A stretch of DNA of 64,000 nucleotides, taken from Elusimicrobia bacterium ADurb.Bin231. Its GTDB lineage: Bacteria; Elusimicrobiota; UBA8919; MWCF01. How positions within the stretch are numbered: position 1 is the stretch's first letter; each line of letters begins with the position of its first letter. The DNA lies in NCBI GenBank assembly GCA_002069855.1, contig MWCF01000007.1:2585-66584 (forward strand), written 5' to 3'. Below, in pieces: positions 4,144-61,107 of the stretch. The translations under genes were made by a program, and so were the position numbers. A model generated the notes under the pieces. It ran no database searches. It was not told the origin of the DNA and saw only the letters and a list, made by a program, of their open reading frames with translations.

Positions 4144-4217
4144 ACAAACAACCTCTCAAAGATATTGTGTTTATGCTGGAAAAATATTATTACATACGCA
4201 TAAAAATTAGCAATCTT

Positions 4218-4583
4218 TCATTTTGTTTTTTTATAAATTTTTTCAGGGTCAAACAATTTCTTGCCTATAGTCTTTCCGGCATCAGTTCTAAAGAAACAAG
4301 TTTCATATCCTGTATGGCATGCCGCACCTTTAGGTTCTACCAGAATAAGAAGAGCGTCGCTGTCGCAATCAACCAGTATTTTTTTGACTATTTGAACATT
4401 CCCGGATTCTTCGCCTTTCATCCAAAGTTTTTTCCTGCTTCTTGAATAGAACCATGTCTTTTTTGTTTCCTGTGTTTTTTTAAATGATTCCGCATTCATA
4501 TACGCAAGCATTAACACCTTGCCTGTTTTTTCATTCTGCACTATAGCAGGAATTAAACCGTTTTTATCAAATTTCAATGTCAT
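4218..4583 (-). CDS. hisI: Phosphoribosyl-AMP cyclohydrolase.
   Basis: 121 aa. [27 protein letters not shown] metal-binding signature of HisI. Overlaps hisF by 4 nt. Confidence 0.85.
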
Positions 4584-5365
4584 AATTTTACCCTTATGCC
4601 TTTCTTTGAAAGATATTGTTTTAATTTTTTTATTGTAATTTTCCTATAATGAAAAAGCGATGCTGCAAGCACAGCATCAGCCTTCCCTTTTTTAATAGCA
4701 TCGTAGAAATGTATTAATTTACCGGCGCCGCCGGAAGCGATTACCGGAATATTTACCGCTTCAGATACCGCCTTTGTCAGATCAACGTCATAACCGTCCT
4801 TTGTCCCGTCTTTATCCATACTGGTCAAAAGTATCTCTCCTGCTCCGAGACGCTCCGCTTTTTTTGCCCATTCAACTGCATCCAAACCTGTAGGAGTCCT
4901 GCCCCCGTAAGTATATACTTCCCAATGAGAACCCGCTTTGTTTTTTTGAGACGCTGATTTTTTAGCGTCTATAGCAACAACGATACATTGACTTCCGAAT
5001 AGTAATGAAGATTTGCGAATAAAAGAGGGATTTTCAACTGCCGCGGTATTCATTGAAACCTTATCTGCGCCGGCTTTAAGAAGGTTCCGGATATCCGAAA
5101 TATTTTTTATCCCGCCGCCGACAGTCAGAGGCATAAATACCTTTTCAGCGGTTTTCTTTACCACATCTATAATGATATTCCTTTTTTCATACGAAGCAGT
5201 AATATCAAGAAAAACTATTTCATCCGCGCCGTCGTCATTATATCTCTGCGCAATTTCCACAGGATCTCCGGCATCGCGCAGATTGATGAATTTTGTGCCT
5301 TTCACGACCCTTCCGTTATTGACATCCAAACAAGGTATTATTCGTTTCGTAAGCATATTAAACAT
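4580..5365 (-). CDS. hisF: Imidazole glycerol phosphate synthase, cyclase subunit.
   Basis: [21 protein letters not shown]-terminus and (beta/alpha)8 barrel motifs. 261 aa. Confidence 0.9.
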
Positions 5366-5418
5366 AGCAAAATCGCGCTTTCATTCATCTGAGTATCTTC
5401 TTTATGCCGTGGCGCGTA

Positions 5419-6150
5419 TTATTTGCATTCCTCCTTCACGATATATATGGCATCCTCCAGTTTTATGGATCCGGTATAAAGCGCTTTTCCTATTATCATT
5501 CCGACCACGCCGCAACTTTCAAGTTTACAAATTTTTCTGACATCATCAGATGTTGAAACACCGCCTGAAGCGATTACGGATAATCCGCTGCGGCATAATC
5601 TTTTAATCCCTTCTATGTTGGCACCTCTCATCATACCGTCTTTCATTATATCTGTCATAATTATTTCTTTGATACCTATATCCTGCATTGTTTTTGCAAA
5701 TTCCAGAGCGTCATGATTGGTCTTTTCCTTCCATCCGCCTATAGCAATTTTGTCATCCAAAACATCAATGGCAAGTATTATTTTATCATTGTGTTTAGCC
5801 ACTGCCTCTTTTAGCATACAGAGATTAAACACCGCTGACGTTCCTATGATAATCTTGTTTATTCCGATAGATACAAGTTTATCCACAGTTTCAAGTTTCC
5901 GGACGCCGCCGCCGAATTCTATTTCAACAGACGTTTCCATGCGGATTTTTTCGACTAACGTCAAATTTTGAGGCGCGCCTACGAAAGCGCCGTCGAGATC
6001 AACTATATGTATCCTTTTGATCCCTTTAGTCTGAAACATTTTCGCTATAAAAACAGGATCTTTGGAAAATATTGTTTCAGCTTCAAGTTTTCCCTGAGTA
6101 AGCATAACACAATTGCCGCCTCTGATATCAATTGCCGGTATAATCTGCAT
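5419..6150 (-). CDS. hisA: Phosphoribosylformimino-5-aminoimidazole carboxamide ribotide isomerase.
   Basis: MQIIPAIDIRGGNCV start. 243 aa. Position between hisF and hisH. Confidence 0.9.
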   Translation of the reverse strand: MQIIPAIDIRGGNCVMLTQGKLEAETIFSKDPVFIAKMFQTKGIKRIHIVDLDGAFVGAPQNLTLVEKIRMETSVEIEFGGGVRKLETVDKLVSIGINKIIIGTSAVFNLCMLKEAVAKHNDKIILAIDVLDDKIAIGGWKEKTNHDALEFAKTMQDIGIKEIIMTDIMKDGMMRGANIEGIKRLCRSGLSVIASGGVSTSDDVRKICKLESCGVVGMIIGKALYTGSIKLEDAIYIVKEECK

Positions 6151-6748
6151 AATTCCTCAATAATTTTAATCCTTTATTCTGGCTTTTTTCCGGATGAAAT
6201 TGCGTGGCAAAAATATTTTTATAAAATACGGATGACACGAAATTCGTCCCGTAAAACGATACGCTCGAAGTAATATTCTTATCGCAAGGAACGACAAAAT
6301 AAGAATGCACAAAATAAAAATAAGAGTTATCCTGAATCCCGCTAAAAATATAATTTTTAACGATAGACCCGTTTAATTTCACATTATTCCAACCCATATG
6401 CGGAATTTTTAATTCTCCTGCCGGTAAAATTTTTTTTACGCAACCTTTTAATATTCCCAGTCCTTCTGCTTTTCCCTCTTCGCTTTTTTCAAAGAGGACT
6501 TGCAAACCGAGGCATATACCGAGAAACGGTTTGCCGGAAAAGATATAATTCTTTATAGGTTCAACGAGTTTTTTCTTTTTTAAATTTTTCATAGCGGAAT
6601 CAAACGCTCCGACACCGGGCAATACAAGCAAAGAAGATTTCATAATTTTTTTTCTGTCGGCGGTTATTATAGCAGGCTTTCCTATATATTCAAAGGCTTT
6701 TTGAACGCTTCTTAGGTTTCCCATATTGTAATCAATTATCGTAATCAT
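6128..6748 (-). CDS. hisH: Imidazole glycerol phosphate synthase, glutamine amidotransferase subunit.
   Basis: MITIIDYNMGNLRSV start. Class I GATase Cys in GICLGLQ. 206 aa. Confidence 0.9.
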   Translation of the reverse strand: MITIIDYNMGNLRSVQKAFEYIGKPAIITADRKKIMKSSLLVLPGVGAFDSAMKNLKKKKLVEPIKNYIFSGKPFLGICLGLQVLFEKSEEGKAEGLGILKGCVKKILPAGELKIPHMGWNNVKLNGSIVKNYIFSGIQDNSYFYFVHSYFVVPCDKNITSSVSFYGTNFVSSVFYKNIFATQFHPEKSQNKGLKLLRNYADYTGN

Positions 6749-20626: not shown

Positions 20627-21892
20627 TTATTTCAACCAGACAAGAGGATTTTGCGGCGCGCCGTCTTTTCTGACTTCAAAATAAAGAGATGCCTTTTGAC
20701 TTGACTGCGGCAATCCGACCTTTCCCAACAGTCCTCCGACGACTATCTTTTGTCCGTTTTTTACATTTATGCTTTCCAAATTTCCGTAAATCGTGTACAA
20801 TCCCTTGCCGTGATCAACGATAACCATATTGCCGTATGATTTAAATTCTCCGGCATAAACAATAACTCCGTCCATAGAAGCGATTACGTTGGACCCGGCG
20901 GGAGCTGTTATTCTTATACCGTTGTTAATGATCCATGTGTTAAGCTCTGAATGCTTTTGTCTTCCGAACTTATCTGAAATCCCTTTTTTTAAATTTACAG
21001 AGTTGCCTTCCAGCGGCCAATTCAACATTTTTGCTGGGGACGACGCTGCCGCAGGCTTGGATACAGCCGGCAAAACGTTTTTTTTAGCTTGTTCCTTAGC
21101 CTTTTTTTCGTATTCTTTCAATAATTCTGAAAGCAGTTTTTCCGAATCCTTTAATTTCTGCAATTCCTGTTCATGGAACAATCTTTGTTTGGAAACAGAT
21201 GAAAGAAGCTTTTTCTTTTGCCGCGTTTCCGAATAATATTTATTTTCCGCTGTCCTCTTTTTTCGTTCAAGTTCGCCGATATCTCTAAGTTCTTTATCAA
21301 GCACTTTTTTTAGAGACAAATACTCATCTATTTTTTTAAGAGTTTGAGCGTAAACAAATGTTTTCTGTTTTGTAATCGCCTGAATAAATTTTTTCTTCTT
21401 TGCCGCTTCTGCGCTTGAGGAGGTCAATAATATCATATCCTGCCCGGACATCCCCATCCTGTGTTTATATGTATACCTGACCTCATTACCAAGCACTTCT
21501 TTCCAGTAAACGGATTCTATTGTCGTCTTCTCAAGTTTATTTTTCAGCAAATTCGCCGATTCATTGCGGCGTTTCATATCCGCATGTAAAACAGAAATTT
21601 CTTTCTTTGTTTTCTCAAGCTTTTTTGTAATACTCTCCAGCTGATGCTTTAAGGAAACTTCTTCATTTTTTTTTACTGCCACACTTTTCTGTTTACTTTG
21701 TATCTGAGACTTAACTTTGGAAAGTTGTTGTTTATTCTTATCTATTTTAGTTTTAAAATCCGTTGTCTGTGCTGCGTAAATATAAGAGGCAACGACACAA
21801 AACAATAATACAAAGCGCAATCCAGCCAGACAAGCTTTCTTCAAAGTTATTAAATATAAATCGTCCCGGCCACTTCTATTTTTCCATAACAT
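20627..21892 (-). CDS. EnvC-like murein hydrolase activator: coiled-coil N-terminal region plus C-terminal M23/LytM peptidase domain.
   Basis: Long Lys/Glu/Gln-rich coiled-coil region. C-terminal M23 signature (VDHGKGLYTIYGNL, GAPQNPL). Confidence 0.75.
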   Translation of the reverse strand: MLWKNRSGRDDLYLITLKKACLAGLRFVLLFCVVASYIYAAQTTDFKTKIDKNKQQLSKVKSQIQSKQKSVAVKKNEEVSLKHQLESITKKLEKTKKEISVLHADMKRRNESANLLKNKLEKTTIESVYWKEVLGNEVRYTYKHRMGMSGQDMILLTSSSAEAAKKKKFIQAITKQKTFVYAQTLKKIDEYLSLKKVLDKELRDIGELERKKRTAENKYYSETRQKKKLLSSVSKQRLFHEQELQKLKDSEKLLSELLKEYEKKAKEQAKKNVLPAVSKPAAASSPAKMLNWPLEGNSVNLKKGISDKFGRQKHSELNTWIINNGIRITAPAGSNVIASMDGVIVYAGEFKSYGNMVIVDHGKGLYTIYGNLESINVKNGQKIVVGGLLGKVGLPQSSQKASLYFEVRKDGAPQNPLVWLK

Positions 21893-22613
21893 TTTTAGGT
21901 AATCTTACTATGACTCCGGCTATTATGAATATGCCGGCAATTATTATAAGTTCCTTTCGGGATAAAAAGGATAAATTCATAAATATTTTTGAAAAAATTT
22001 CCTTATGAAAAAAGTATAACAGAGCATATCCAAAAGCCGTTCCTATAAGAGCATCAATAACACCGTATCCGGGTTTCTTTTTGGGAATAGCGAGAGAAAC
22101 GAGCAATGAAGAAAAAATAAATAAAACAGCATAAAGAATATTAAACCAGGATTTGAAAATTAAAATGGTCTTTTCTATTGTTGAAAGACTTTCCGCTTCA
22201 ACTATAGTATAATATATGTCTTCCACTCCTTCGATTCTTCTGAGTTTTTCCGCGGTCTCTTTGATTACTTCCGGAGATTTCAATTTCAAAAAAACATCTA
22301 TGGAATCCGGAAGAGGATTCCGGTCCAGTATTTTAATTTGCTGCTCGAATTCTCCGTCTTTTTTTAATTCTTCCAGCGCCTCTGCCTTAGACGTATATTC
22401 TATTCTTTCTATTATTTCATCGGAACGCAATTGGTTGAAGATATTATCCTTTTCCATATCCGTTAAGCCGTCGTTTAAAAAAAGTATTATTTCCACTCTC
22501 TCTCCGAGAGAATCAAAATATGATGACACATTCTTTACGGTAATAATAAAATATCCGTAAAATGTTATATGTATTGCCACAAAAAACGAGACAAGAAAGG
22601 ATAGATTTTTCAT
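21876..22613 (-). CDS. ftsX: FtsX-like cell-division permease (no ftsE adjacent).
   Basis: 245 aa. TM1, an extracytoplasmic domain, then 3 C-terminal TMs. Sits immediately upstream of the EnvC-like gene as in FtsEX-EnvC systems. Confidence 0.55.
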   Translation of the reverse strand: MKNLSFLVSFFVAIHITFYGYFIITVKNVSSYFDSLGERVEIILFLNDGLTDMEKDNIFNQLRSDEIIERIEYTSKAEALEELKKDGEFEQQIKILDRNPLPDSIDVFLKLKSPEVIKETAEKLRRIEGVEDIYYTIVEAESLSTIEKTILIFKSWFNILYAVLFIFSSLLVSLAIPKKKPGYGVIDALIGTAFGYALLYFFHKEIFSKIFMNLSFLSRKELIIIAGIFIIAGVIVRLPKNVMEK

Positions 22614-24058
22614 TTTATCGCGGATTTAAACAATTTTACATATTCAATAACGGATTTTTTCCAGCAGAAATCTTTTTTCATGCATTGCCTGACTCTTTTA
22701 TCCCAAGTTTTCCTAACATGATACGCAGCAATAACTCTATCAGCAGCTGTTAACATTCCCAGAGGATCGGCGTTTTCAATAAAGAACCCGCAGGTTTCGT
22801 CGACTGTATCTTTAAATCCGCCTGTCTTTGTAACAAGCGGCACAGTTCCATAGCGCATAGCTATAATCTGTCCCAAACCGCAAGGTTCAAATAAGGACGG
22901 CATCATAAAAACATCGGCGCCGGCATAAATATTATGGGCAAGAGATTCATCAAAAGCAATATTTACAGACAGATTTTCCGGGTATTTTTTAGAAATTTCT
23001 ATAAGATCTTTCTGGAATTTTTGCGCGCCTTTCCCAAGAATGACAAGAGATAACCTCTTCTTCAATAGTTCAGGCAATATTTCAAGCAATAAATCGAATC
23101 CTTTTTGGGCTTCAAGACGGGAAACCATGCCGAAAAGAGGCTGATCGATATTTTTTAATCCTACTGACGCAAGAAGGTATTTTTTGTTTTCCTTTTTCAG
23201 ACGCAATTTGTCGACTGAATATTTTTTCTTCAACAGGGGATCTTTTTCCGGATTCCAATATTGGCAATCGATCCCGTTCAGTATCCCGGAAAGATCAGAT
23301 TTTCTGAGTTCCAGAAGATTTTCAAGGCCGTGGCCGAAAAAATTATTTGTTCTAATTTCTTCGGCATACGACGGGGAAACTGTGGAAATCTTATCCGCAT
23401 AAACAATTCCGGCTTTCATAAAATTGAATTTCCCGTAGAATTCAAGCCTGTCCGGAATAAAATCCATATCCGAAAAACCGGCAAGATTGTAAATATCTTT
23501 TTCAAAAAGGCCTTGATATGCCATATTATGCACGGTAAATACAGATTTCGTTGAAGCAAAAAACGCATCTATTTTATACACTGTTTTCAAATATGCGGGT
23601 ATTATTGCGGTTTGCCAGTCATTACAATGTATCACATCAGGTTTAAAATCCACAAATTTCGCCGTTTCCAAAACTGCTTTGGAAAAGAATATAAACCTTT
23701 CAGCCTGATCGGGGTAATCGCCTTCGGGAGTGCCGTAAATATTATCTCTGTCAAAGTAAAGATCATTTTGAACAAAATAGACAATAAAACCTTCTTTTTT
23801 GGTTTGCCAAACGGATGTTTCAATGTATTTTCCGGCCATCGGAATAATAAAATTCCCCGCAATTTTTTTCAAGCCGAATTTCTTTTTGTCTATTGTTTTG
23901 TAAAGAGGCATTATTACCCGAAGATTAATCTGCTCGGACGGCAAAAACTTTCCGAGAGAGCCGCATACATCCGCAAGTCCCCCTACTTTCGCGAACGGAA
24001 CGCATTCAGTTGAGGCAATAAGAACATTCATTTTCTTCGATACAACAGAGCGGTTCAT
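22610..24058 (-). CDS. glgA: Glycogen/starch synthase (GT5, ADP-glucose type).
   Basis: KVGGLADV motif near the N-terminus. 482 aa. C-terminal GT-B Rossmann motifs. Confidence 0.85.
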   Translation of the reverse strand: MNRSVVSKKMNVLIASTECVPFAKVGGLADVCGSLGKFLPSEQINLRVIMPLYKTIDKKKFGLKKIAGNFIIPMAGKYIETSVWQTKKEGFIVYFVQNDLYFDRDNIYGTPEGDYPDQAERFIFFSKAVLETAKFVDFKPDVIHCNDWQTAIIPAYLKTVYKIDAFFASTKSVFTVHNMAYQGLFEKDIYNLAGFSDMDFIPDRLEFYGKFNFMKAGIVYADKISTVSPSYAEEIRTNNFFGHGLENLLELRKSDLSGILNGIDCQYWNPEKDPLLKKKYSVDKLRLKKENKKYLLASVGLKNIDQPLFGMVSRLEAQKGFDLLLEILPELLKKRLSLVILGKGAQKFQKDLIEISKKYPENLSVNIAFDESLAHNIYAGADVFMMPSLFEPCGLGQIIAMRYGTVPLVTKTGGFKDTVDETCGFFIENADPLGMLTAADRVIAAYHVRKTWDKRVRQCMKKDFCWKKSVIEYVKLFKSAIK

Positions 24059-25116
24059 CCGAATTTCTCCTTTAATTTCATACGATTGCGTAAAAGGTCA
24101 TCCGGTGTTTTTATAGGGAAAAACCGCTCTTCCCTGTTTACTACGACATACATGGATTTAAGAAAAATAGAAAGATCTCCCGCAAGCCGTTCAAATTGAA
24201 TAACCTTTTTATCTTTTACCGTTTTTTCCACATAGTAAAAAGGCAGATCAAATTTTCTGTCCAGAGCCTTTGCTGAAAATATATAAGTGGCAGTATTGAA
24301 TACTGTAATTGAATCCTGATCAAAATCCTTTGGGAACTTAAACTGTTCGACTATTTCCAAGCGGCCGTCAACAATTGCCGGAGCGCCGCCTTTGTCGCCC
24401 GCATATTTCTGCGCGAGCTCAACAGTCATCTCGGAATCCTGGGATATATGCGCCCCGAGTATAACTCCGTCTATGGTTGCTCCGAGATTGTCAACATTTG
24501 AAAACCACAGATATTCTCCTCCTTGAGAAATAAATTCGTTAAGATATCCGCTTTTTCTAAACGCCACTGCGAAATCCCCATGTCCTGGACCGTAATAACT
24601 TTCATTTTCCGGATTGAAATAAGTTCCATCCGCGTTCAAACGTTTGGCGATGAACTGATTGAAACATTTAATGGAATTTTTTAATCCGAAATAATTATTC
24701 TTTTCAAGATGCTCGATTGTTGAGGCCTCGGTAGCGTAACTGTTCATCAAGTAAACCGGAATATGTGTTTGATATTTCTCATTTGCCTTTTTAATCTGTT
24801 CCAACTTTATCTGGAGAAAACTTTTAGCGTCATAGACCTCAACAACGCCTTTGACTACTCCTCCGAATCTTGTGGCCATGCCGCCGTTCACGATAACAAT
24901 CCCAAGCTTCCCGCGTCTTATAGCATTATCCGCAATTTTTGAATATTCGGAGTCCTTACCTTTGTCTCTGCCGCAATAAAAATACATTGATTCTTCCGGC
25001 GCAGAAACTTTCCCGCGGATAAGATTGTTTTTTCTGGAAAGTTCTCCTGAAATAAACTTATTCCTTAATTCTTCAAAAAGTTTGCTATCATATCCGTATT
25101 TAGATAATATATCCAT
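24055..25116 (-). CDS. UDPGP-family sugar-1-phosphate nucleotidyltransferase (UGPase/UAP-like pyrophosphorylase), short form (353 aa).
   Basis: VNGGMATRFGG, equivalent to the LNGGLGT(S/T)MG nucleotide-binding loop of the UDPGP family. Position inside the glucan cluster. Confidence 0.5.
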   Translation of the reverse strand: MDILSKYGYDSKLFEELRNKFISGELSRKNNLIRGKVSAPEESMYFYCGRDKGKDSEYSKIADNAIRRGKLGIVIVNGGMATRFGGVVKGVVEVYDAKSFLQIKLEQIKKANEKYQTHIPVYLMNSYATEASTIEHLEKNNYFGLKNSIKCFNQFIAKRLNADGTYFNPENESYYGPGHGDFAVAFRKSGYLNEFISQGGEYLWFSNVDNLGATIDGVILGAHISQDSEMTVELAQKYAGDKGGAPAIVDGRLEIVEQFKFPKDFDQDSITVFNTATYIFSAKALDRKFDLPFYYVEKTVKDKKVIQFERLAGDLSIFLKSMYVVVNREERFFPIKTPDDLLRNRMKLKEKFG

Positions 25117-25161
25117 GTTTACCTCTTGCTCCCGATAGAAGATATAAACTTTTATCCCAAT

Positions 25162-26295
25162 CTATTTAGATAAACCTTCATACAGTTTCTTGGTTTGTTC
25201 CGCGATATATGTCCAGGAAAAGTATTTTTCCACTCTTTTTCTGCCATTTTCACCGAAGCGCTTTCTCAAATTATCGTCTTTTAAAAGCCTATTCACAGCC
25301 GCGGCAATCTGTTCGGAATTCTTGGGTTCCACATGAAGACCAGTCTCTTCAGGAACAACTACTTCCAATATGCCTCCGGTAGCTGCCGCGACAACCGGAG
25401 TTTTGCATGCCATAGCCTCAAGATTGATTATTCCAAACGGTTCATAGATAGAAGGACAGACAAAAACTTTAGCGGAACTGTACAATTGCACGTACTCTTC
25501 CTCTTTTAACATCTTGTGTATCCATACTATATTTTTTTTCTGCTCCACCTTTTTCATCATTCTCTCTTCATAATCTTTTGTATCCGCGCCTACCGCGCCA
25601 AGCACTATTTGTACCGGTATGTCGTCGGCGGCATCGATAAGATATTCCAAACCTTTTTGAGGCGTAGGCCTGCCAACGAATAAAATATAATCGTCCGCAA
25701 TGCCGTATTCCTTTTTTAGAGAATCATTCAATGGTGTATGATTCCATTTATTCAAATCAATGCCATTGTGTATCACAGCCACTTTTTCTTCAGGTATATT
25801 AAAGCAGTTTAGAATATCCTGTTTCATTAATTTTGAGACCGCTATAACCTTGTCGCACTGTTCAATGGCTGTTTTTTCAATCCACGCGCTTAACTGATAA
25901 CCTCTGCCCAACTGGTCTTCCTTCCACGGCCGCAATGGCTCAAGAGAATGGCATGTGGCAACAAAAGGAATATCATACAGTATTTTTGTAAGCAGCCCGC
26001 CGAAATGGCCGTACCATGTATGCGTATGAACCACATCAGCATCTATTTCTTTCATCTGAGACAAAAGATTAACGGACATGGTTTCCAGAGCAGGAGAAAA
26101 CTTTTTTCCTTTTAAAGCGTCCCAGCCTTTATATCCTGTTGCCTGAAGCGAGGTGTCATTAACATTTTGATCGCCGAAACACCGGATCTCGACATCCATT
26201 ATTTTAGAAAGTTCTTGCGCCAAATATCTCAAATGCACACCTGCTCCTCCATAAACGTATGGAGGATATTCCCTTGCCATCATGGTTACTTTCAT
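25162..26295 (-). CDS. glgM: GT4 glycosyltransferase of the GlgM type (alpha-maltose-1-phosphate synthase; Corynebacterium-family glycogen synthase).
   Basis: REYPPYVYGGAGVH, HSLEPLRPWKEDQLGRGYQLSAWIEKTA, VFVCPSIYEPFGIINLEAMA, FSWTYIAEQT. These match conserved GlgM blocks as recalled, not searched. Directly upstream of GlgE. Confidence 0.65.
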   Translation of the reverse strand: MKVTMMAREYPPYVYGGAGVHLRYLAQELSKIMDVEIRCFGDQNVNDTSLQATGYKGWDALKGKKFSPALETMSVNLLSQMKEIDADVVHTHTWYGHFGGLLTKILYDIPFVATCHSLEPLRPWKEDQLGRGYQLSAWIEKTAIEQCDKVIAVSKLMKQDILNCFNIPEEKVAVIHNGIDLNKWNHTPLNDSLKKEYGIADDYILFVGRPTPQKGLEYLIDAADDIPVQIVLGAVGADTKDYEERMMKKVEQKKNIVWIHKMLKEEEYVQLYSSAKVFVCPSIYEPFGIINLEAMACKTPVVAAATGGILEVVVPEETGLHVEPKNSEQIAAAVNRLLKDDNLRKRFGENGRKRVEKYFSWTYIAEQTKKLYEGLSK

Positions 26296-26678
26296 TCCAG
26301 CCTCCCTTGTTGAAATTTTCTATCCGTATTTTAAATAACCATACACTCCTGCGGTACGGCATATCATACAATTATCATATCGGGTTAAACAGCCTCTGTA
26401 AAGAAATTTTGAAGTATATATTTATTAATTATATTACTTTTTCAGAAAAAAACAAATATTTTTATAAGTAAAATCGCTGCGATAGTATTTGGTACGGCAA
26501 TATCGCGCTAAATATTACGTTTTATTTAAAGAAATGCGATAAACTTTTTGCCGACTTTAACAATAAATTTCTTAAACTCCAGGATATTGGGTTCCAAAAA
26601 AGATGAATCAGGCATGACATCGCGCCAGCATGTCTTCCAAATTATCTTCCTATTGGCAATGGCCTTATCGAAATAATT

Positions 26679-28616
26679 CTAATGCCCGGGTGTCGTGAAA
26701 TAAGCGTTAACAATAGTCGGAAATCCGAATTTTCGGGATTCAATATTAATGGCAGCATAATACTTTTCGTCAAAAGTTTCACCTGTATATACCAACGGAA
26801 TAATTTCTTTCGTAAAAAGATCGGCCAGTTCTCTTCTCGCATATACATCGTTATAGGCGGTCGCGCGATATCTCAAATCAAAAAATCTTTTCGCATGCTG
26901 TTCCGCGAGCTGATTTCGAACTATGCTCCCGGATTTAGAAGGAACCTTTTTATCAAGCCGAATTTTGAAAATATACGCTGGCTCTTTGTACGGATCCAGC
27001 CGCACATAATTTTCTCTTCCCTGCCATAGATAAAACTTTCCGATTATCAGTTCCTCTACCCAATATTCCTGATCAGAGGAAATGCCGTATCTTTCCACAG
27101 GGACTGCCAAACGGACATCCTGGGTTGTTCTCGGATCCAGGTTAACCGCTGTAAGAATGATATTATCTTTAAATTTTTTCCCGTAAAATAATATATTATC
27201 ATTGATGGAATTTAAAATTTCAAGATTATCGTAATAATGCAAAGCAGGATTATTCCGGATAATGTTATTGAGCTTTTCTATATAACCTTTTATATTTCCG
27301 GGTCTGTCCCAATCCCATACCTTATATTGATATTTTTCCGAGTTCACATATATCTCTGTGCCGGGAAACGCTTTGTTTTCACACAGCTCATATCCGTTAT
27401 ACATCCCGTACACCGACGACAGCGTCGAGGCAAGAACTATGCGCATTTTAAATGCGGGCCGGCCGCCTGATTGTAAAATCGGAGGACATATATCCGGAGT
27501 GTTGGTAAAGAAATTCGCTCTTAAAAATTCTTTCAGATATGTGCCGGTTAACTTGAAAACATATTCTATCAATTCGTCTTTCTTATTTCTCCACGTAAAA
27601 TATGTGTATGACTGTGAAAAGCCCACCTTTGCCAATTCTTCAAGCTTTTCATAATTTGTAAACGCTTCGGCAAGAAAAACCGTATCCGGATAGGCCAATT
27701 TTACTTCCCTGATCATCCATCTCCATAATTCGCTTGGTTTCGTATGAGGATTGTCTACACGAAAATGAGTTACTCCGGCAGCGCACCAGAACATAATGAT
27801 AGATTTTAATTCTTCCCACAATTCTTGTTTGTTGGGAGGAAAGAAATTCAACGGATACACATCTTCGTATTTTTTTGGAGGATTCTCTGCGCAGGCTATA
27901 CTTCCGTCAGGCCGATGAAAAAACCATTCTGGATGTTGTTTTACATACGGATGGTCGGGAGAACAATTCAGAGCAAAATCTATGGCTGTGTCAAATCCCA
28001 TATTTTTGGCTGACGCGACAAAATGTTTAAAATCATCCATTGTTCCGAGTTCCGGATTCACAGATTTATGTCCGCCAAATTCATTGCCAATCGCCCATGG
28101 AGAACCCGGATCATTAGGACCCGCTGTAAGAGAATTGTTCTGGCCTTTGCGTTTTGTTTTTCCTATAGGATGAATCGGCGGAAAATAAATAACATTGAAG
28201 CCCATTTTTTTTATTTCCGGCAGACGCGCCTCGCAGTCCGCGAACGTGGCGCTTGCATTCGGCGTTTTGCCCTGTGATCTGTGGAACATTTCATACCATG
28301 CCGCAAATCTCGCTATCTCAGGATCAACAATTACTTCAAGAACTTTGTCGTAACGAATTTTCCCGCATTCAAAGGTATATTGATAGATGCCTGTTGCGGC
28401 AAAATTTATATCCGCAAAATATCCTTTTCCTGATTTTTTCATACGGCTCTTATTCCACAAATCAGTTCCCACCCTTCTATACTTGAGTATCGGAACATTA
28501 GACGCTTTACCTTCTATTTCGCAATAAATCGCCATACCCCTGTCCAATTCGGTTTTTACCGGATATTCTCCGCCTTCGATTTCAGGATAAACATTTTTGA
28601 TCTTCATACACATCAC
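26679..28616 (-). CDS. glgE: Alpha-1,4-glucan:maltose-1-phosphate maltosyltransferase.
   Basis: 645 aa. N-terminal GlgE domain. GH13 core with WFFHRPDGSIACAENPPKKYEDVYPLNF signature. Confidence 0.85.
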   Translation of the reverse strand: MMCMKIKNVYPEIEGGEYPVKTELDRGMAIYCEIEGKASNVPILKYRRVGTDLWNKSRMKKSGKGYFADINFAATGIYQYTFECGKIRYDKVLEVIVDPEIARFAAWYEMFHRSQGKTPNASATFADCEARLPEIKKMGFNVIYFPPIHPIGKTKRKGQNNSLTAGPNDPGSPWAIGNEFGGHKSVNPELGTMDDFKHFVASAKNMGFDTAIDFALNCSPDHPYVKQHPEWFFHRPDGSIACAENPPKKYEDVYPLNFFPPNKQELWEELKSIIMFWCAAGVTHFRVDNPHTKPSELWRWMIREVKLAYPDTVFLAEAFTNYEKLEELAKVGFSQSYTYFTWRNKKDELIEYVFKLTGTYLKEFLRANFFTNTPDICPPILQSGGRPAFKMRIVLASTLSSVYGMYNGYELCENKAFPGTEIYVNSEKYQYKVWDWDRPGNIKGYIEKLNNIIRNNPALHYYDNLEILNSINDNILFYGKKFKDNIILTAVNLDPRTTQDVRLAVPVERYGISSDQEYWVEELIIGKFYLWQGRENYVRLDPYKEPAYIFKIRLDKKVPSKSGSIVRNQLAEQHAKRFFDLRYRATAYNDVYARRELADLFTKEIIPLVYTGETFDEKYYAAINIESRKFGFPTIVNAYFTTPGH

Positions 28617-28724
28617 CGCCTTTTAAATTTAACATATTTATTTGAAAAACATTTTTTTATCATGCTGTAAATAAAATTTCAGATACTCCATTAGATTCAA
28701 CATCCAGAAAAATTTCCAAAAAAG

Positions 28725-29723
28725 TTACTGCGCTTCCCTTAAAAATTTTGCGGCTTCTTCAGGAGGAGTAGGATTCCTGTAAAAACCGGTACCCCATTCA
28801 AATCCCGCAGTTCTTAACAATTGAGGCATCATTTCTATATGCCAGTGGTAATAAGAAAGTTTTCCGTTTCTGCAAGGCGAATTATGAATTACAAAGTTGT
28901 AAGGAGGATTCTCAAGAACTCTGTTCATACGAGAATTCAGATCCTTCAATATCAAGGCAAGATTCGACACTTCATGCTTCTGAGAATCTTCAAAAGACGA
29001 AGAATGCGTTTTCGGCAATATCCATGTCTCAAAAGGAAATCTGGAGGCAAAAGGAGTAATGCATATAAAATCCTCATTCTCGGAAACTATCCTTGTATTG
29101 GATTCTATTTCCTCTCTAATAATGTCGCAGAAAGCGCATCTCTCTTTATAATCATAGTAATTTCTGCTGCCGTCCAATTCCTGTTTGACTCTGACAGGGA
29201 CAGTGGGCATGGCTATTATTTCGGAATGAGGATGAGTTAACGACGCTCCAGCAGCTTCTCCGCGATTTTTAAAAACAAGTATATACTCGAATCTTGAATC
29301 CTTTTTCAGATCAAGAATCCTATCCCTCCATCCCCATATTACCTCTTCCACCTGTCTTGTTTCAAGATCGGAATAATCCGCGTTATGAATTTGCGATTCC
29401 ACAACAACTTCATGGGCGCCTATTCCGTCCATTAGATCAAACATGCCTTCGCCCCGTTTATTCACGTTCCCTTCAATTCTCAAGACCGAAGATTTGCTCG
29501 GAATAATCCTAACCCACCAGCCCTTTTCATTTTTCTTTGTGCCGGGCTCGCGAAAAGATGAAATTTCAGGAGGTGTTTTGCTTTCATTCCCGGGACAAAA
29601 CGGACATTTGGCTGCAGTGATCTTATCGTCTGAAATATTAGCATGAATAGGATGAATCTTTCCCCGTTCCGTTGTTATTATAACCCATCTGCCTATAATA
29701 GGATCCCGTCTTAATTCAGACAT
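28725..29723 (-). CDS. Galactose-1-phosphate uridylyltransferase (GalT) family hexose-1-phosphate nucleotidyltransferase.
   Basis: CPFCPGNE zinc motif and HPHSEIIAMP active-site His-Pro-His. 332 aa. Confidence 0.75.
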   Translation of the reverse strand: MSELRRDPIIGRWVIITTERGKIHPIHANISDDKITAAKCPFCPGNESKTPPEISSFREPGTKKNEKGWWVRIIPSKSSVLRIEGNVNKRGEGMFDLMDGIGAHEVVVESQIHNADYSDLETRQVEEVIWGWRDRILDLKKDSRFEYILVFKNRGEAAGASLTHPHSEIIAMPTVPVRVKQELDGSRNYYDYKERCAFCDIIREEIESNTRIVSENEDFICITPFASRFPFETWILPKTHSSSFEDSQKHEVSNLALILKDLNSRMNRVLENPPYNFVIHNSPCRNGKLSYYHWHIEMMPQLLRTAGFEWGTGFYRNPTPPEEAAKFLREAQ

Positions 29724-29739
29724 TTTTCCTCCATTATTG

Positions 29740-30642
29740 CTACACTATTCCGCATTTTTTTAAATATGCGGTGGAATTTTTAAGTTCCTCGTCGTTTGAC
29801 GACAAAGAATGAGTTTCGTTGACAAGCAGCGTATCCTGTCTAATAAAAACAGATATATCTGAAAAATTAACTTCTCCTGTACCAGGCGCTTTATGGTCGT
29901 AAACGTCGGTTACATCATGCAGATGCAATCCCACAATCCGTTTCCCGTACGCTTTCAGAAAATCTAATCTATTATTTACAACGCCCTGTTTTTCAGCGAT
30001 TACCGCATGTCCTACGTCATACCAAAAGCCGAGATTGGGTGAATCAAGTTTCTGAAGTATAATTCCGGTTTCTTTATAAGAAGGTATTTCGTTTGCCCAA
30101 AACCTGTTTTCTATTCCAATCTTTATCTTCTTTTTTACAGCGTAATTAAGAACCCTGTCCAAAACCGCGACAACATTTTCAAGAAACACAGCACTCTTTT
30201 TATTTCTTTCTTTAAGAAAATTCGACAATATTTCCTTATAACCATCTTTCCCTTTGGTTTCATTGAAGTGGCGCGCCAGATGCCTGCCTGTGAATTCAGT
30301 CACAACTTCGCCGGAATGAATAACCAAAGCGGTCGCGCCTACGCCTGCCGCGACATCTATGCTTTTCAAAGTAAGTTTCAATGCCAATGCCCTTTCTTCA
30401 ACATCTTCGGAGGACATCAAATAAGGCGAATAGATTGTTCTTCCTTCCGGAACAGTTTCCACTTTAGGACAATAATTATGCACAGATATAATTTTTAACC
30501 GACCGGATAACTTATTGATGAATGACGCAGGAATTTCCACGTTTAATTCAATGGCGGGAAATCCAAAACTTTTAATTTCATCTGCCAAAGAATCAGGATT
30601 GTTATGCCTGCGTATATTGTATGCCGTAGAAAGAGCTATCAT
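29740..30642 (-). CDS. Sugar phosphate isomerase/epimerase (xylose-isomerase-like TIM barrel).
   Basis: 300 aa. Metal-binding residues spaced as in AP-endonuclease 2/xylose isomerase-like barrels (VGLHLHD, ETHS). Confidence 0.55.
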   Translation of the reverse strand: MIALSTAYNIRRHNNPDSLADEIKSFGFPAIELNVEIPASFINKLSGRLKIISVHNYCPKVETVPEGRTIYSPYLMSSEDVEERALALKLTLKSIDVAAGVGATALVIHSGEVVTEFTGRHLARHFNETKGKDGYKEILSNFLKERNKKSAVFLENVVAVLDRVLNYAVKKKIKIGIENRFWANEIPSYKETGIILQKLDSPNLGFWYDVGHAVIAEKQGVVNNRLDFLKAYGKRIVGLHLHDVTDVYDHKAPGTGEVNFSDISVFIRQDTLLVNETHSLSSNDEELKNSTAYLKKCGIV

Positions 30643-30773
30643 TTTATACCTTTATAAATAAAATTCACAAACGCGGCAGCGCAAACTCAATCATAATATC
30701 CACTCTCCGATATTTGCCGCAACATTTTATTCCACTGCAGATTTAATTTTTAAAAAAATTCCGGTTTTATAAG

Positions 30774-32735
30774 TTATCTGCCTTCCTGCTGATGTTTCTG
30801 ATATAATTCTATTAAAGGCTGGGCAACATTTGAAGGAGCTTCTTCATAATGAGAAAACTTCATCTTGAATGAGCCCGCACCTTTTGTTATTGAACGCAAA
30901 TCAGTCGAATACATCCCTACTTCGGAAAGAGGCGCTGATGCTATTACCTTTTGTCTTCTGCCTGCGCGTTCCATTCCCATCACCCTTCCGCGTTTAGAAT
31001 TCAAATCTCCCATAACATTGCCCATATATTCATCGGGAATTACTATTTCAAGTTCAAATATCGGTTCCAATAAAAGAGGCTTCGCTTCAACGACTCCCTT
31101 TTTGAATGCCATGCTGCCGGCTATCTTGAACGCCATATCAGACGAGTCCACTTCATGATAACTGCCGTCGTATAAAGTTACCTTTATATCAGTAACAGGA
31201 TACCCTGCGATAACACCCTGTTCCATTGCCTCTTTAATGCCTTTTTCAACTGCGGGAATATAGTTTTTAGGTATCCGACCCTCTCGTATGGCATTTACAA
31301 ACTCATATCCTGCTCCGCGTTCCTTTGGCTCAAGTTTTATCCAGCAATCTCCGTACTGACCGCGACCGCCGGTCTGCCTTTTATATTTTCCCTGAACCTC
31401 GCATTTACCTCTGACTGTCTCTCTATATGCCACTCTAGGCAAACGAAGTTCGACATCCACCCCGTATCTTGATTTAATTTTTCCCACTCCTGTTTCAAGA
31501 TGAACCATTCCCATGCCGGAAAGTATCATCTCCTTTGTTTCCGCATTGTAAGAAGACTTAACAGTCAGATCCTCTTTCATCATAGATTGTAACGCGGAAG
31601 CAACCTTTTCTTCCTCTCCCTTTGATTTCGGATAAACGGCCATGCTTATGTTTGGTTCAGGGAAAGCGACACGTTCAACCTTTTCGGCAAGAGTGTCATC
31701 TCCCAAAACATCATTGGTATGGGTATCCTTCAGTTTAACAGCCACGCATATATCCCCGGCGGAAGCGTCCTTCAGTTCGCTTCTCTTTTTTCCGAGCAGA
31801 GTGCATAAAGTGCCGAACCTTTCACTGGATCTTCTGGAAACATTTTTTATATCCGCGCCCTGCGTTATTTTTCCTGAAAGCAGTTTAACAAAAGAAAGAT
31901 TTCCGGAATGCGGTTCAACAACGCTTTTAAACACCAAAGCGGAAAGCGCGGCCTGTTCAGAACCGGTATCAGGGAACGGGAAATAATCCTTTATAAAATT
32001 GATGAGAGAATCGCAACCTATATTTTTCGTGCTGCTTCCCGACAGGATAGGTATCAATGTTTTTCCCAATATTCCTTTTTTAAAAGAGGATATCAATTCT
32101 TCTTTCGAAATTTCCTTGCCCTCCAAATATTTTTCTATTAACACATCGTCATTAGACGCGACGGTCTCTATTAATTTTTCTTTGAAAGCAGCGAAATTAT
32201 CCGGGATTGTTGAATCTAAAAGCGAAAAGACTTTTGCCAGCTGAACGCCTGTAGAATCAGGCAATATGAAAGGAACTGCAGCCTTGTCAAATTGTGAAAT
32301 CATATCAATGTTTTTATTTAAATCAATATCTTCTTTGTCAAGTTTGTTTAAAAATATTGCTTTGGGTTTGTTGAATATTTCCCACAACATTTCAAAAGAA
32401 GCGTCTATATCGGTATTCGCGGGAAGAACAAAAATTGCGGCATCCGCCGCTGTTATAGCGGACATGGTTTCTCCGACGAAATCATAATATCCTGGAGTAT
32501 CCAGAATATTCAGTTTTACACCGCCAGAAACAAAAGAACACAAAGAGGTATAAATTGAAGAACACCGCGCAATTTCATCAGGGCTGTTGTCGCTTACAGT
32601 ATTACCCTCTTCAACCTTGCCAAGCCGGGTCGTAAGTTTGGCATTATAAAGAATCGCTTCTACTAAACTTGTTTTACCGGCTCCGCCTCCGCCCACTATC
32701 GCCACATTTCTAATCTGTTCCTTCGGATAACTCAT
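30774..32735 (-). CDS. Divergent EF-G-like translational GTPase (653 aa) with non-canonical P-loop.
   Basis: G1 motif AIVGGGGAGKTSL instead of AHIDAGKTT. G3 motif DTPGY, G4 motif NKLD. C-terminal EF-G domain IV/V motifs (RGRVMGMERAGRRQKV...LRSITKGAGSFKMKFSHY). Confidence 0.75.
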   Translation of the reverse strand: MSYPKEQIRNVAIVGGGGAGKTSLVEAILYNAKLTTRLGKVEEGNTVSDNSPDEIARCSSIYTSLCSFVSGGVKLNILDTPGYYDFVGETMSAITAADAAIFVLPANTDIDASFEMLWEIFNKPKAIFLNKLDKEDIDLNKNIDMISQFDKAAVPFILPDSTGVQLAKVFSLLDSTIPDNFAAFKEKLIETVASNDDVLIEKYLEGKEISKEELISSFKKGILGKTLIPILSGSSTKNIGCDSLINFIKDYFPFPDTGSEQAALSALVFKSVVEPHSGNLSFVKLLSGKITQGADIKNVSRRSSERFGTLCTLLGKKRSELKDASAGDICVAVKLKDTHTNDVLGDDTLAEKVERVAFPEPNISMAVYPKSKGEEEKVASALQSMMKEDLTVKSSYNAETKEMILSGMGMVHLETGVGKIKSRYGVDVELRLPRVAYRETVRGKCEVQGKYKRQTGGRGQYGDCWIKLEPKERGAGYEFVNAIREGRIPKNYIPAVEKGIKEAMEQGVIAGYPVTDIKVTLYDGSYHEVDSSDMAFKIAGSMAFKKGVVEAKPLLLEPIFELEIVIPDEYMGNVMGDLNSKRGRVMGMERAGRRQKVIASAPLSEVGMYSTDLRSITKGAGSFKMKFSHYEEAPSNVAQPLIELYQKHQQEGR

Positions 32736-39422: not shown

Positions 39423-40949
39423 TTACGCAAAAAAATTTCTTACCGGAACTGTAAATAGACCCGGAAAACCGCATTCTGTGCATGTCCCTTTTTTTGTATC
39501 ACAAAAATCTCGGAATATCTGCAAAAGTCCTTGCTGCGTCCTTTCGTTTTTTATAATTTTTCCAAAACCGATTTTAGTTGAAGTGCAAAGTGTAATACTA
39601 TTTATTGAACGCGAAGGTATCCTCGCCCAGAAATCGAATAATTTTCTCTCTTGCGTGCGGTCATCATTCAATGCCAAAGCCAAAGGAATAAATGTGTTTA
39701 TTATAATTGAAACAGTGCGTTCGTCGCCGAGATACGACACGTCAGATGCCATTTTCCGCGCGTTAAAAGACACTCTCCTTTTCCAATAATCGGCATTGCC
39801 GGAATTTTCGCACATCAGTTTTTTCCGAAATGATGCAGCGGAAAACCTGCCTTCCATTACCTCTTTTAAAAAATCATTAAATAATTTTTCCAAACCGCAT
39901 GCGTCATATTTACTTAAAATTATACTTAAAGCCGCTATTCTCCGGTATGGAAAATTAAAAGGACGCAGACCCTTAAATTTCCATGAATCCTTTTTTAAAA
40001 CCTCTGACGCAGATATGTCCTTTCTTATTGTTTTCCATATCTTGCGTACTTTGGAGATATATTCTTCAGATTCATTGTCAATCGCGTTAACTCTCTCAAT
40101 TTCCGGTATAAGTCCGGACACGCCCAAAACAAGAGACTGTATTCTCAGAGACTTTTCTTCGAATTTTTCAGCTTTAATAACATCTTCTATTCTCTCAAGC
40201 GGCAGCATATCAGCCAATTTGCGAAAATTCGCCCTGTTAGCTCCATACCCCAACCCGTCCATAAGTCCCCTGTAAATTATGCCGGCAATCGAGCGTTTCC
40301 GCAATTCCTCTGAAAAGACACCGCTTTTAATCCTTACTCTTTCATCACCTGCAACGGCAACAAGATGTTCAAGCAAACTGTATTTATCCGGATTATATGA
40401 AGCGCATCTGCCGCGGTGTTTTCCTTCCCCGCCGGGATAATTTTCCACATCAAATTCCGCGTTATATCGATCTATTTCATTATTGGCACAGGAGCTAAGT
40501 TCCAAACAAGGTATTTTTTTCCCTAAGGAATCAATAATAATATCTTCTTTGGTGTTTTTCCACGCTATTACAAATAAAACCGCATTTTTCAACAACGGAT
40601 CTTTGCCGCGACCGAATTTAATCCAGTCCGAGGAAAACAGATCTGTTACAATGTCTCCGGCGATTTCTTTATTATTGATTAAAATTTTTGCGTTTTTGAA
40701 ATCCGGTCCAACATCGAAATTCCAATTACCCGGGCATAAGACACAGATAGAATCTCCGGAGGAAGCGCGCAATCCTCTGCGTTCTATTCGTTGTTCACCC
40801 CAGATTGTTTTAAGCAATTTTTTAGTAACTGGCGGTTTGTCAGCAGGATTCTCCTCTGTTCTTTTAAGAAGAAAGTTGTCTCTTATTTTGGCATATTTAT
40901 CGGTAAATCCGGAAGGCTTGGGAAATTTGATTTCGTCTATGTATTTCAT
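39423..40949 (-). CDS. Conserved hypothetical protein (508 aa) with C-terminal Cys cluster.
   Basis: Long uninterrupted ORF in operon context between CpXC and pilT. C-terminal CDTKKGTCTECGF. I cannot assign a family with confidence. Confidence 0.6.
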   Translation of the reverse strand: MKYIDEIKFPKPSGFTDKYAKIRDNFLLKRTEENPADKPPVTKKLLKTIWGEQRIERRGLRASSGDSICVLCPGNWNFDVGPDFKNAKILINNKEIAGDIVTDLFSSDWIKFGRGKDPLLKNAVLFVIAWKNTKEDIIIDSLGKKIPCLELSSCANNEIDRYNAEFDVENYPGGEGKHRGRCASYNPDKYSLLEHLVAVAGDERVRIKSGVFSEELRKRSIAGIIYRGLMDGLGYGANRANFRKLADMLPLERIEDVIKAEKFEEKSLRIQSLVLGVSGLIPEIERVNAIDNESEEYISKVRKIWKTIRKDISASEVLKKDSWKFKGLRPFNFPYRRIAALSIILSKYDACGLEKLFNDFLKEVMEGRFSAASFRKKLMCENSGNADYWKRRVSFNARKMASDVSYLGDERTVSIIINTFIPLALALNDDRTQERKLFDFWARIPSRSINSITLCTSTKIGFGKIIKNERTQQGLLQIFRDFCDTKKGTCTECGFPGLFTVPVRNFFA

Positions 40950-61049: not shown

Positions 61050-61072
61050 TTACACCCCATAACATATTTTTT

Positions 61073-61097
61073 AACTACCGAGAAATCCTCGGTAGTT
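61073..61097. other. Perfect 10-bp stem / 5-nt loop hairpin in the hsdS-hsdR intergenic spacer.
   Basis: aactaccgag-aaatc-ctcggtagtt. The T-run follows on the plus strand only, so it is not an intrinsic terminator for the minus-strand operon. Confidence 0.5.
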
Positions 61098-61107
61098 GCC
61101 GCTTTTT

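Follow-up and report, generated by a model that had tools for sequence, protein, structure and literature searches.

A putative composite alpha-glucan locus in an Elusimicrobia genome, with a GlgE-GlgM-UDPGP module beside a GalT-like/GlgA pair

Within a 64-kb stretch of DNA from Elusimicrobia bacterium ADurb.Bin231 (termed here the window, to whose full length all window coordinates refer) six co-oriented, minus-strand open reading frames (ORFs) lie between positions 22610 and 30642; in order of transcription these encode a TIM-barrel protein, a GalT-like nucleotidyltransferase, the maltosyltransferase GlgE, a family 4 glycosyltransferase (GT4), a short UDPGP-family nucleotidyltransferase and the glycogen synthase GlgA (Table 1). 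A first-pass annotation, made from the sequence alone, had described them as a compact alpha-glucan cluster. The genes, their co-orientation and their coordinates are exactly as described there, but the architecture is modular, is interrupted by a 383-bp gap and is not conserved as a set of six. The intergenic spacings, again in order of transcription, are 16 bp, 108 bp, 383 bp and 45 bp, followed by a 4-bp overlap between the UDPGP and glgA genes; because the 3' end of glgA likewise overlaps an FtsX-like gene by 4 bp, the co-oriented run continues beyond glgA, and co-transcription is presumed. No terminator-like hairpin was seen in the 383-bp gap, where a sigma-70-like site on the coding strand makes an internal promoter probable. 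Across the window Rfam finds only a tRNA-Lys, with nothing in 26200-30900 even at E ≤ 1, and neither a riboswitch nor a leader was found by Rfam in the intergenic gaps. Recent horizontal transfer of the cluster was rejected because GC content (flat at 0.37-0.41 over the cluster region) and skew are uniform across it; the nearest loci are those of other Elusimicrobia metagenome-assembled genomes (MAGs).

Table 1. Genes and other features of the cluster region, in order of transcription
Feature	Position	Strand	Evidence
TIM-barrel protein, xylose-isomerase-like, 300 aa	29740..30642	-	PF01261
Class I GalT-family HIT nucleotidyltransferase, 332 aa	28725..29723	-	PF01087, PF02744, TIGR00209
GlgE, 645 aa	26679..28616	-	PF21702, PF11896, phmmer to S. 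coelicolor GlgE1
GlgE C-terminal extension, ~residues 551-645	26682..26966	-	conserved in 13 related loci
glgE/GT4 intergenic gap, 383 bp	26296..26678	.	sigma-70-like site, minus strand 26402-26374
GlgM-type GT4 glucosyltransferase, 377 aa, predicted alpha-maltose-1-phosphate synthase	25162..26295	-	TIGR02149
Short UDPGP-family sugar-1-phosphate nucleotidyltransferase, 353 aa	24055..25116	-	PF01704
GT5 glycogen synthase GlgA, 482 aa	22610..24058	-	TIGR02095
FtsX-extracellular-domain protein, 245 aa (context)	21876..22613	-	Pfam

The GT4 protein is predicted to be a GlgM-type synthase of alpha-maltose-1-phosphate (EC 2.4.1.342). It scores 471 bits against the GlgM-type model TIGR02149 (cut-off 302.4); its best match in the PDB is Mycobacterium smegmatis GlgM (6TVP, E=2.3e-86), with the next GT4 enzyme at 1.1e-36, that is, 50 orders of magnitude behind; and it keeps all eight GlgM donor-site residues (H116, V153, N177, R209, K214, E285, G288 and I289), which in the M. 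smegmatis enzyme are His109, Val146, Asn171, Arg207, Lys212, Glu289, Gly292 and Ile293 (PMC7137382). By both TIGR02149 and its nearest PDB structure the protein groups with GlgM, as had been proposed, rather than with ordinary GT4 enzymes; an exopolysaccharide GT4 was rejected on profile hidden Markov model (HMM), PDB and gene-context evidence.

The 645-aa protein is, by its overall match and its motifs, a genuine GlgE (GH13_3, EC 2.4.99.16), for which maltosyl transfer is predicted. It matches Streptomyces coelicolor GlgE1 over residues 93-552 (phmmer E=5.7e-148), scores over the cut-off for both PF21702 and PF11896, and keeps the motifs RVD288NPH, FLAE317AF and NTPD375I, which align to those of GlgE1 and whose residues D288, E317 and D375 we take, following GlgE structures, to be the nucleophile, the acid/base and the second Asp, respectively. 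Within the motif that binds the phosphate of maltose-1-phosphate (ENPPK248K249Y250EDVYP) the key residues are identical to those of solved GlgE. The first-pass annotation had cited for GlgE a 28-letter motif ([28 protein letters not shown]), which, like the motif KVGGLADV that it had cited for GlgA, is present in the window ORFs, and the catalytic and maltose-1-phosphate-binding motifs, whose loss would have spoken against this identification, are intact. An exact-sequence look-up of the window protein returned no record.

This GlgE differs from the S. coelicolor enzyme at both ends. Of the GlgE domain profiles, GLGE_C is matched, while GlgE_dom_N_S is matched at positions 4-85 of 179 only; the N-terminal region is ~107 residues shorter than that of GlgE1, and the protein appears to be without the S part of the N/S domain. 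At the other end is an extension of ~80-90 aa that contains the motifs NDVYARRE and YTGETFD and terminates in ...AYxTxPGH (in the window, ...AYFTTPGH); it has no match in Pfam or in the PDB. The extension is kept in 13 related loci (L001-L007, L009-L013 and L025), whose record titles name Elusimicrobia, Endomicrobia, Wallbacteria, Hydrogenedentota, Muiribacteriota and Bacteroidia, and on this distribution it is specific to a subfamily.

The genes surrounding GlgE were compared by a scan of one genome per species, which yielded 228 relatives, and by analysing the best 80 loci (L001-L080), which come from more than 15 phylum-level lineages. In 40 of the 80 the distance from GlgE to a GlgM-type GT4 gene is at most 4 kb, and none of these has TreS-Mak; a TreS-Mak fusion stands beside GlgE in 27, usually with GlgB and GlgX and never with a GT4 gene; and neither partner occurs in the remaining 13, many of which end at a contig edge. 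No locus has both. Such mutual exclusivity is strong contextual evidence that GT4 is the source of maltose-1-phosphate in those loci where it occurs, and it suggests that the GlgE pathway is wired in one of two alternative ways, largely according to lineage. The lineages with GlgM-linked loci, taken from record titles, are Elusimicrobia, Endomicrobia, Cloacimonadota, Hydrogenedentota, Muiribacteriota, Wallbacteria, Auribacterota, Dependentiae, Fibrobacteria, Omnitrophota, Bacteroidia, Magnetococcales, Rhodospirillales and Betaproteobacteria.

The short UDPGP protein scores 192 bits against PF01704 (gathering threshold 22), covering profile positions 4-345 of 413, and matches no NCBIfam model. 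Its best PDB matches are eukaryotic UGPases (E ~1e-34), to which it aligns over the catalytic core only--in human UGP2, residues 123-421 of a 526-residue chain--and the C-terminal beta-helix domain of the eukaryotic enzymes is absent from its 353 residues. The core motifs (the Gly-rich loop, NQ, PGHGD, NVDNLG and KGG) align with those of human UGP2, and N77-G85, Q154, H179-D181 and N207-N210 do not vary among 11 diverse members of the family. The Gln of the motif presumably contacts uracil, which serves as a lead but not as a test of UTP specificity. The protein is predicted to supply the locus with UDP-glucose.

A connection between this enzyme and GlgM comes from gene order and from gene fusion. 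The order GlgE-GT4-UDPGP is the same in L001-L005; on a Muiribacteriota contig (L010) GT4 and UDPGP form one ORF of 737 aa (4165-6378), directly after GlgE; and fusions with an N-terminal GT4 and a C-terminal UDPGP domain make up four clusters at 90% identity (P0241-P0244; 736-754 aa, mutually 53-82% identical), one of which was found on six contigs (the fusion loci include L172 and L173). One fusion (P0244) lacks a GlgE gene within 8 kb and has a PEPCK gene as its neighbour. The fusion is rare: it is known here from these four clusters, and an exhaustive search of 50%-cluster representatives with it yielded no full-length fusion among the best 150. A pyrophosphorylase fused to a transferase that uses what it makes is a classic indication that the two steps are consecutive, and these natural fusions tie the pyrophosphorylase to GlgM. 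The earlier suggestion that a UDPGP-type enzyme provides NDP-glucose is strengthened accordingly, the nucleotide presumably being uridine. The same annotation had called this enzyme unusual; it is not peculiar to the cluster, short UDPGP proteins being the common, stand-alone UDPGP enzymes of several phyla.

GlgA is by all indications a canonical GT5 glycogen synthase: it scores 554.7 bits against TIGR02095 (cut-off 328.45), matches Escherichia coli GlgA over residues 10-477 (E=3.8e-84) and carries the motif KVGGLADV, starting at K24, all of which bears out its initial assignment. The remaining enzymes of glycogen metabolism were sought in the window by tblastn, using as queries the E. coli proteins GlgB, GlgC, GlgP and GlgX together with GH57, TreS-Mak, MalQ, PGM and PGI sequences from related loci, and by Pfam scans of the other sizeable ORFs; none of these (treS and pep2 being covered by TreS-Mak) occurs in the 64-kb window outside of the cluster, the rest of the genome not having been searched. 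The lack of glgC, glgB, treS and pep2 that had been noticed for the cluster thus extends over the whole window. Nor do Pfam scans find galK or galE among the sizeable window ORFs, the others of which are housekeeping genes.

The GalT-like protein matches both Pfam domains of its family (PF01087 and PF02744) and passes TIGR00209 (galT_1; 136.9 bits, cut-off 102), so that its placement in the GalT family holds. Within that family, however, it appears nearer to ADP-glucose phosphorylase than to the Leloir enzyme. It scores 157.2 bits against the Leloir equivalog model NF008724, far under the cut-off of 448, and its best PDB match is Arabidopsis At5g18200 (1z84; E=2.4e-66, 227 bits), ahead of the GalTs of Pyrobaculum aerophilum (136 bits) and E. 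coli (96 bits, 2e-26). At5g18200 is an ADP-glucose phosphorylase rather than a GalT (McCoy et al. 2006, as cited in PMC6329318). A Leloir GalT is an unlikely identity for the window protein, which misses the NF008724 cut-off; neither galK nor galE occurs in the window or in those contexts of homologues that were examined. Residues C40, C43, H104 and H164 align with At5g18200, the first, second and fourth being invariant among the aligned homologues and H104 nearly so; we take these to be the ligands of the structural zinc site (Cys-x-x-Cys plus two His), partly following the literature on class I GalTs. The nucleophile position, H166, is present.

Gene order in relatives ties this protein both to GlgE and to GlgA. 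The gene is directly upstream of GlgE in L001-L005, L011 and L025, and the order GalT-GlgE-GT4-UDPGP is kept in at least five related Elusimicrobia genomes--so that these genes do not, as had been considered, find themselves among unrelated neighbours in relatives. It is directly upstream of glgA in 12 of 80 loci of metagenome homologues (with DUF5693 downstream of glgA in two), in an Elusimicrobia locus (L082, see below) and in Caldisericia (L086), where the pair belongs to a cluster that also comprises PGM, PGI, a nucleotidyltransferase-PGM fusion and three GH57 genes, among them those of a branching enzyme and a glucanotransferase; in Auribacterota (L015) GalT and GlgA adjoin in the order GlgE-GlgM-GlgA-GalT-GH57. 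A GH57 branching-enzyme homologue stands beside one further GalT-GlgA pair (L161) and, without glgA, beside the GalT-like gene of L164.

These contexts indicate that the six genes are not one conserved unit, because relatives have either GalT-GlgE-GlgM-UDPGP without GlgA or GalT-GlgA without GlgE-GlgM-UDPGP. The closest relatives (L001-L004) are of the first kind, with DUF5693 and CsaB following UDPGP. Of the second kind is another Elusimicrobia locus (L082), with the order ScpB-GalT-GlgA-DUF5693-CsaB-FtsX-M23-S41; in L084 GalT is followed directly by DUF5693, with the same FtsX-M23-S41 string downstream. The window shares the L082 backbone, from TrpRS-ScpA-ScpB to FtsX-M23-S41-deacetylase-TsaD, but has GlgE-GlgM-UDPGP between GalT and GlgA, and EF-G and the TIM-barrel gene upstream. 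The most fitting view of the cluster is then that of two modules united at a single locus. The junction between glgE and GT4 is itself variable in this lineage: in L003 (12190-13403) it holds a PIN-domain gene and an ORF of no assigned family, and in L025 (12176-14557) two polyamine-type genes, encoding a decarboxylase and a saccharopine-dehydrogenase-like protein.

With somewhat better than even confidence, we interpret the whole as a composite locus for the synthesis of an alpha-glucan, presumably glycogen-like, made up of a GlgE-GlgM-UDPGP module and a GalT-like/GlgA module. In the first, the short UDPGP enzyme would convert a nucleoside triphosphate (NTP) and glucose-1-phosphate to a nucleoside diphosphate (NDP)-glucose, most likely UDP-glucose; the GlgM-type GT4 enzyme would combine NDP-glucose with glucose-1-phosphate to form alpha-maltose-1-phosphate; and GlgE would transfer maltosyl units onto an alpha-1,4-glucan with release of phosphate. 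This module would correspond to the GlgC-GlgM-GlgE route with a UDPGP-type enzyme replacing GlgC and without TreS or Pep2. In the second, GlgA would elongate, and perhaps prime, the glucan from NDP-glucose, while the GalT-like enzyme, acting as does its closest characterised homologue, would interconvert NDP-glucose plus inorganic phosphate (Pi) and NDP plus glucose-1-phosphate, buffering or recycling the sugar-nucleotide pool. By our thermodynamic estimate phosphorolysis would be favoured at cellular Pi, making the GalT-like enzyme an energy-conserving drain or buffer rather than a substitute for GlgC. The main thrust of the first-pass interpretation is retained here; what changes is the modular architecture, the affinity of the GalT-like protein to ADP-glucose phosphorylase, the lack of support for the TIM-barrel protein (see below) and a substitution in the GalT-like active site.

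This substitution is one of several observations that weigh against the composite locus. The HxHxQ motif is not matched by the window copy, which reads HPHSE, with Glu168 for Gln: the other 119 listed homologues and 94 motif-pattern matches in the fetched loci have Gln, E168 being unique to the window copy (the listed protein P0001, from ADurb.Bin231, is 100% identical to it, and the UDPGP protein likewise matches ADurb.Bin231 at 100%). The codon is GAA (29222-29220, minus strand), a single base from CAA. The motif Gln corresponds to Q168 of E. coli GalT, a residue that touches the phosphoryl group being transferred. Enzyme function may be impaired or altered by the change, which is either an error in the MAG consensus or a real, possibly inactivating, substitution.

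Other such observations concern the partners. The closest relatives do not have GlgA here, and the 383-bp gap, with its promoter-like site, splits the cluster. No branching enzyme was found nearby, the search for glgC and glgB having covered the 64-kb window. More remote members of the short UDPGP family, among others in Planctomycetota and Dependentiae, are encoded by stand-alone genes whose contexts are unrelated, and in close relatives the UDPGP gene is followed by the cell-wall genes DUF5693 and CsaB, which it may also serve. One protein (P0402; 805 aa) fuses a galactokinase (a GHMP kinase with the galactose-binding signature) to a short UDPGP domain, which suggests that some members of the family are UDP-galactose or UDP-hexose pyrophosphorylases with a broader sugar specificity; the GlgM fusion argues for glucose as a substrate, and the family is probably a general UDP-hexose pyrophosphorylase of these phyla that was recruited to the glucan locus. 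(Other fusions that surfaced, to FtsJ, RNase J and a low-molecular-weight phosphatase, mostly look unrelated to the pathway.) Furthermore, Mycobacterium tuberculosis GlgM uses UDP-glucose ~250-fold less efficiently than ADP-glucose (PMC4981310); given this preference, a UDP-glucose-fed GlgM would need a shift in specificity, or else the UDPGP-like enzyme would make ADP-glucose or another NDP-glucose. The UDPGP fusions hint at a different donor for these GlgMs. Finally, the activities of all of these enzymes are, in these clades, predictions from sequence.

The GalT-like gene is also found apart from glucan genes: no gene of glucan metabolism occurs within 8 kb of 68 of the 80 homologues from metagenomes, and the majority of the homologues belong to a soil clade in which the gene follows a UPF0102 gene near iron-sulfur (Fe-S) and chaperone genes, so the family is not exclusively linked to glucan. 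The proposal that this enzyme supplies or recycles the pool is therefore upheld only in part: GlgA is its recurrent partner, yet most of the lineages sampled have no adjoining glucan genes. Indeed, it may be that only GlgE-GlgM, with or without UDPGP, forms a functional module, to which GalT-like, TIM-barrel and GlgA are neighbours through synteny within the phylum, the GalT-like protein being a housekeeping HIT nucleotidyltransferase. The 68 homologues just mentioned and the Q168E change agree with this, as does the fact that the TrpRS-ScpA-ScpB-GalT-...-FtsX-M23-S41 backbone is kept in Elusimicrobia with or without glucan genes (as in the GalT-DUF5693 order of L084). GalT and GlgA genes, however, are repeatedly neighbours in lineages that are unrelated, and their ends often overlap or almost touch; examples are the GH57/PGM/PGI cluster of Caldisericia and, with GlgE-GlgM, Auribacterota. 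Moreover, the closest characterised homologue of the GalT-like protein acts on ADP-glucose, which is the substrate of both GlgA and GlgM. We regard synteny as an unlikely explanation.

At the other extreme, the GalT-like HIT enzyme might have a hitherto overlooked part in the alpha-glucan metabolism of bacteria, in a stronger sense than that of a buffer, which we consider a long shot. This could come about in either of two ways. First, the enzyme would run in the direction of synthesis (ADP + glucose-1-phosphate → ADP-glucose), giving GlgA and GlgM an entry that is independent both of ATP and of GlgC. Second, it would form a cycle with the pyrophosphorylase (NTP + glucose-1-phosphate → NDP-glucose + pyrophosphate (PPi); NDP-glucose + Pi → NDP + glucose-1-phosphate), the net reaction of which is NTP + Pi → NDP + PPi; if true, this could provide PPi to PPi-dependent anaerobes without turnover of glycogen. 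Together with the UDPGP-GlgM fusions, such a role for the GalT-like enzyme would define a third, UDP-glucose-fed wiring of GlgE that is widespread in uncultivated phyla.

Less probable still is that the GalT-like and UDPGP-like enzymes constitute a galactose route of the Leloir or Isselbacher type, which would channel galactose into glucose-1-phosphate for glucan by converting UDP-glucose and galactose-1-phosphate to UDP-galactose and glucose-1-phosphate, with a UDP-hexose pyrophosphorylase completing the cycle. The TIGR00209 score is in keeping with it, and the galactokinase fusion P0402 suggests that some short UDPGP enzymes handle galactose-1-phosphate; but galK and galE are missing from the window and from every GalT-like context examined, NF008724 is missed by a wide margin (157 versus 448), and the match to ADP-glucose phosphorylase is better than that to E. 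coli GalT by ~40 orders of magnitude. [quoted passage not shown]

All of the cluster enzymes belong to known families, and the composite locus is an extension of a known pathway rather than a new kind of system. It is closest to the GlgC-GlgM-GlgE pathway of Mycobacterium and Streptomyces (PMC4981310, PMC7137382, PMC11046441), with which it shares a GT4 GlgM and a GH13 GlgE that have the same catalytic and donor-site residues, as well as the logic by which NDP-glucose and glucose-1-phosphate lead to maltose-1-phosphate and thence to glucan. It differs in that no glgC, treS, pep2 or glgB is nearby; in that a UDPGP-family pyrophosphorylase is beside GlgM and, in relatives, fused to it; in having a GT5 GlgA in the same cluster; in its host, Elusimicrobia; and in its GlgE, which appears to be without the S part and is extended at its C terminus by a novel segment. 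Operons of the TreS-Pep2(Mak)-GlgE-GlgB type, known from Proteobacteria, Chlamydiae and other groups (PMC7935935, PMC8084333), likewise use a GlgE polymerase fed by maltose-1-phosphate, but obtain that substrate from another source. In Pseudomonas aeruginosa (PMC8084333), as at this locus, GlgC is absent, UDP-glucose is the proposed entry and a GT5 GlgA coexists with GlgE; there, however, the pyrophosphorylase is GalU, of another family, and GlgE is reached via TreY/TreZ-TreS/Pep2 rather than via GlgM. The Arabidopsis protein At5g18200 (1Z84/2H39) shares with the GalT-like protein the Cys and His residues of the zinc site and the nucleophilic His, whereas in the window copy the motif reads Glu instead of Gln.

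According to the most recent comprehensive review, GlgE co-occurs in Gram-positive bacteria only with GT4 homologues, GlgM is mostly actinobacterial, and other bacteria with GlgE use only TreS-Pep2 (PMC11046441); the GlgE-GlgM loci gathered here sit poorly with these statements on the distribution of GlgM. Non-actinobacterial genomes annotated with glgM and glgE have been mentioned for Nitrospira marina and Defluviicoccus (PMC8115632, PMC9041414), at the level of annotation; these mentions report no UDPGP or GalT-like partners, fusions or analysis of exclusivity. A literature search found nothing relevant on clusters of galT with glgA or on glycogen in Elusimicrobia.

Three points follow from this analysis. 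GlgE-GlgM is a two-gene module, exclusive of TreS-Mak, that is broadly distributed outside of actinobacteria, the GlgE loci surveyed spanning more than 15 phylum-level lineages; a UDPGP-family enzyme, even one fused to GlgM, would in some lineages supply the sugar nucleotide; and glycogen synthase recurrently has as its partner an enzyme that resembles ADP-glucose phosphorylase. Should biochemistry bear them out, these points would require that the assumed distribution and donor specificity of the maltose-1-phosphate pathway be revised, would give a function to the widespread annotation 'galactose-1-phosphate uridylyltransferase' in bacteria that are free of a galactose pathway, and would improve our understanding of carbon storage in poorly known anaerobic phyla.

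The remaining gene of the run has no supported place in this pathway. The TIM-barrel protein scores 69 bits against PF01261, matches NCBIfam models weakly and below threshold, and has as its best PDB match the uncharacterised MJ1311 (E=5e-6); since these are matches at the level of the superfamily, a defined sugar-phosphate isomerase was rejected, and the initial description of the protein as such was a guess. Conservation of the gene upstream of GalT-like is confined to six close relatives (L001-L005 and L011); it is absent from L082, L084 and L086, and its membership of the glucan pathway is not supported.

On the other side of the cluster, the FtsX-like gene opens a cell-envelope string of FtsX-like, M23, S41 and polysaccharide deacetylase genes. 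The FtsX-like protein (21876-22613) is matched in its extracellular domain only. Relatives have DUF5693 and a CsaB-like polysaccharide pyruvyl transferase ahead of it (L082, 10471-13786; L001, 14413-17880), whereas the window has neither; an M23 peptidase, an S41 protease and a divergent polysaccharide deacetylase then follow it in the window, in L082 and in L001.

Three further regions of the window are of note. At 39423-40949 a 508-aa DUF2851 protein adjoins a type II/IV secretion ATPase and a cNMP-binding protein. At 46025-49246 genes for ETF beta, an acyl-CoA dehydrogenase and an ETF alpha subunit that carries a ferredoxin domain (2x 4Fe-4S) at its N terminus occur together, an arrangement that resembles electron-bifurcating complexes of the Bcd/Etf type. 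And at the end of the window (58752-63969), where GC content falls to 0.33, the R (765 aa) and S (404 aa) subunits of a type I restriction-modification system and a protein with an IrrE/M78-peptidase domain (373 aa) may form a mobile defence island.

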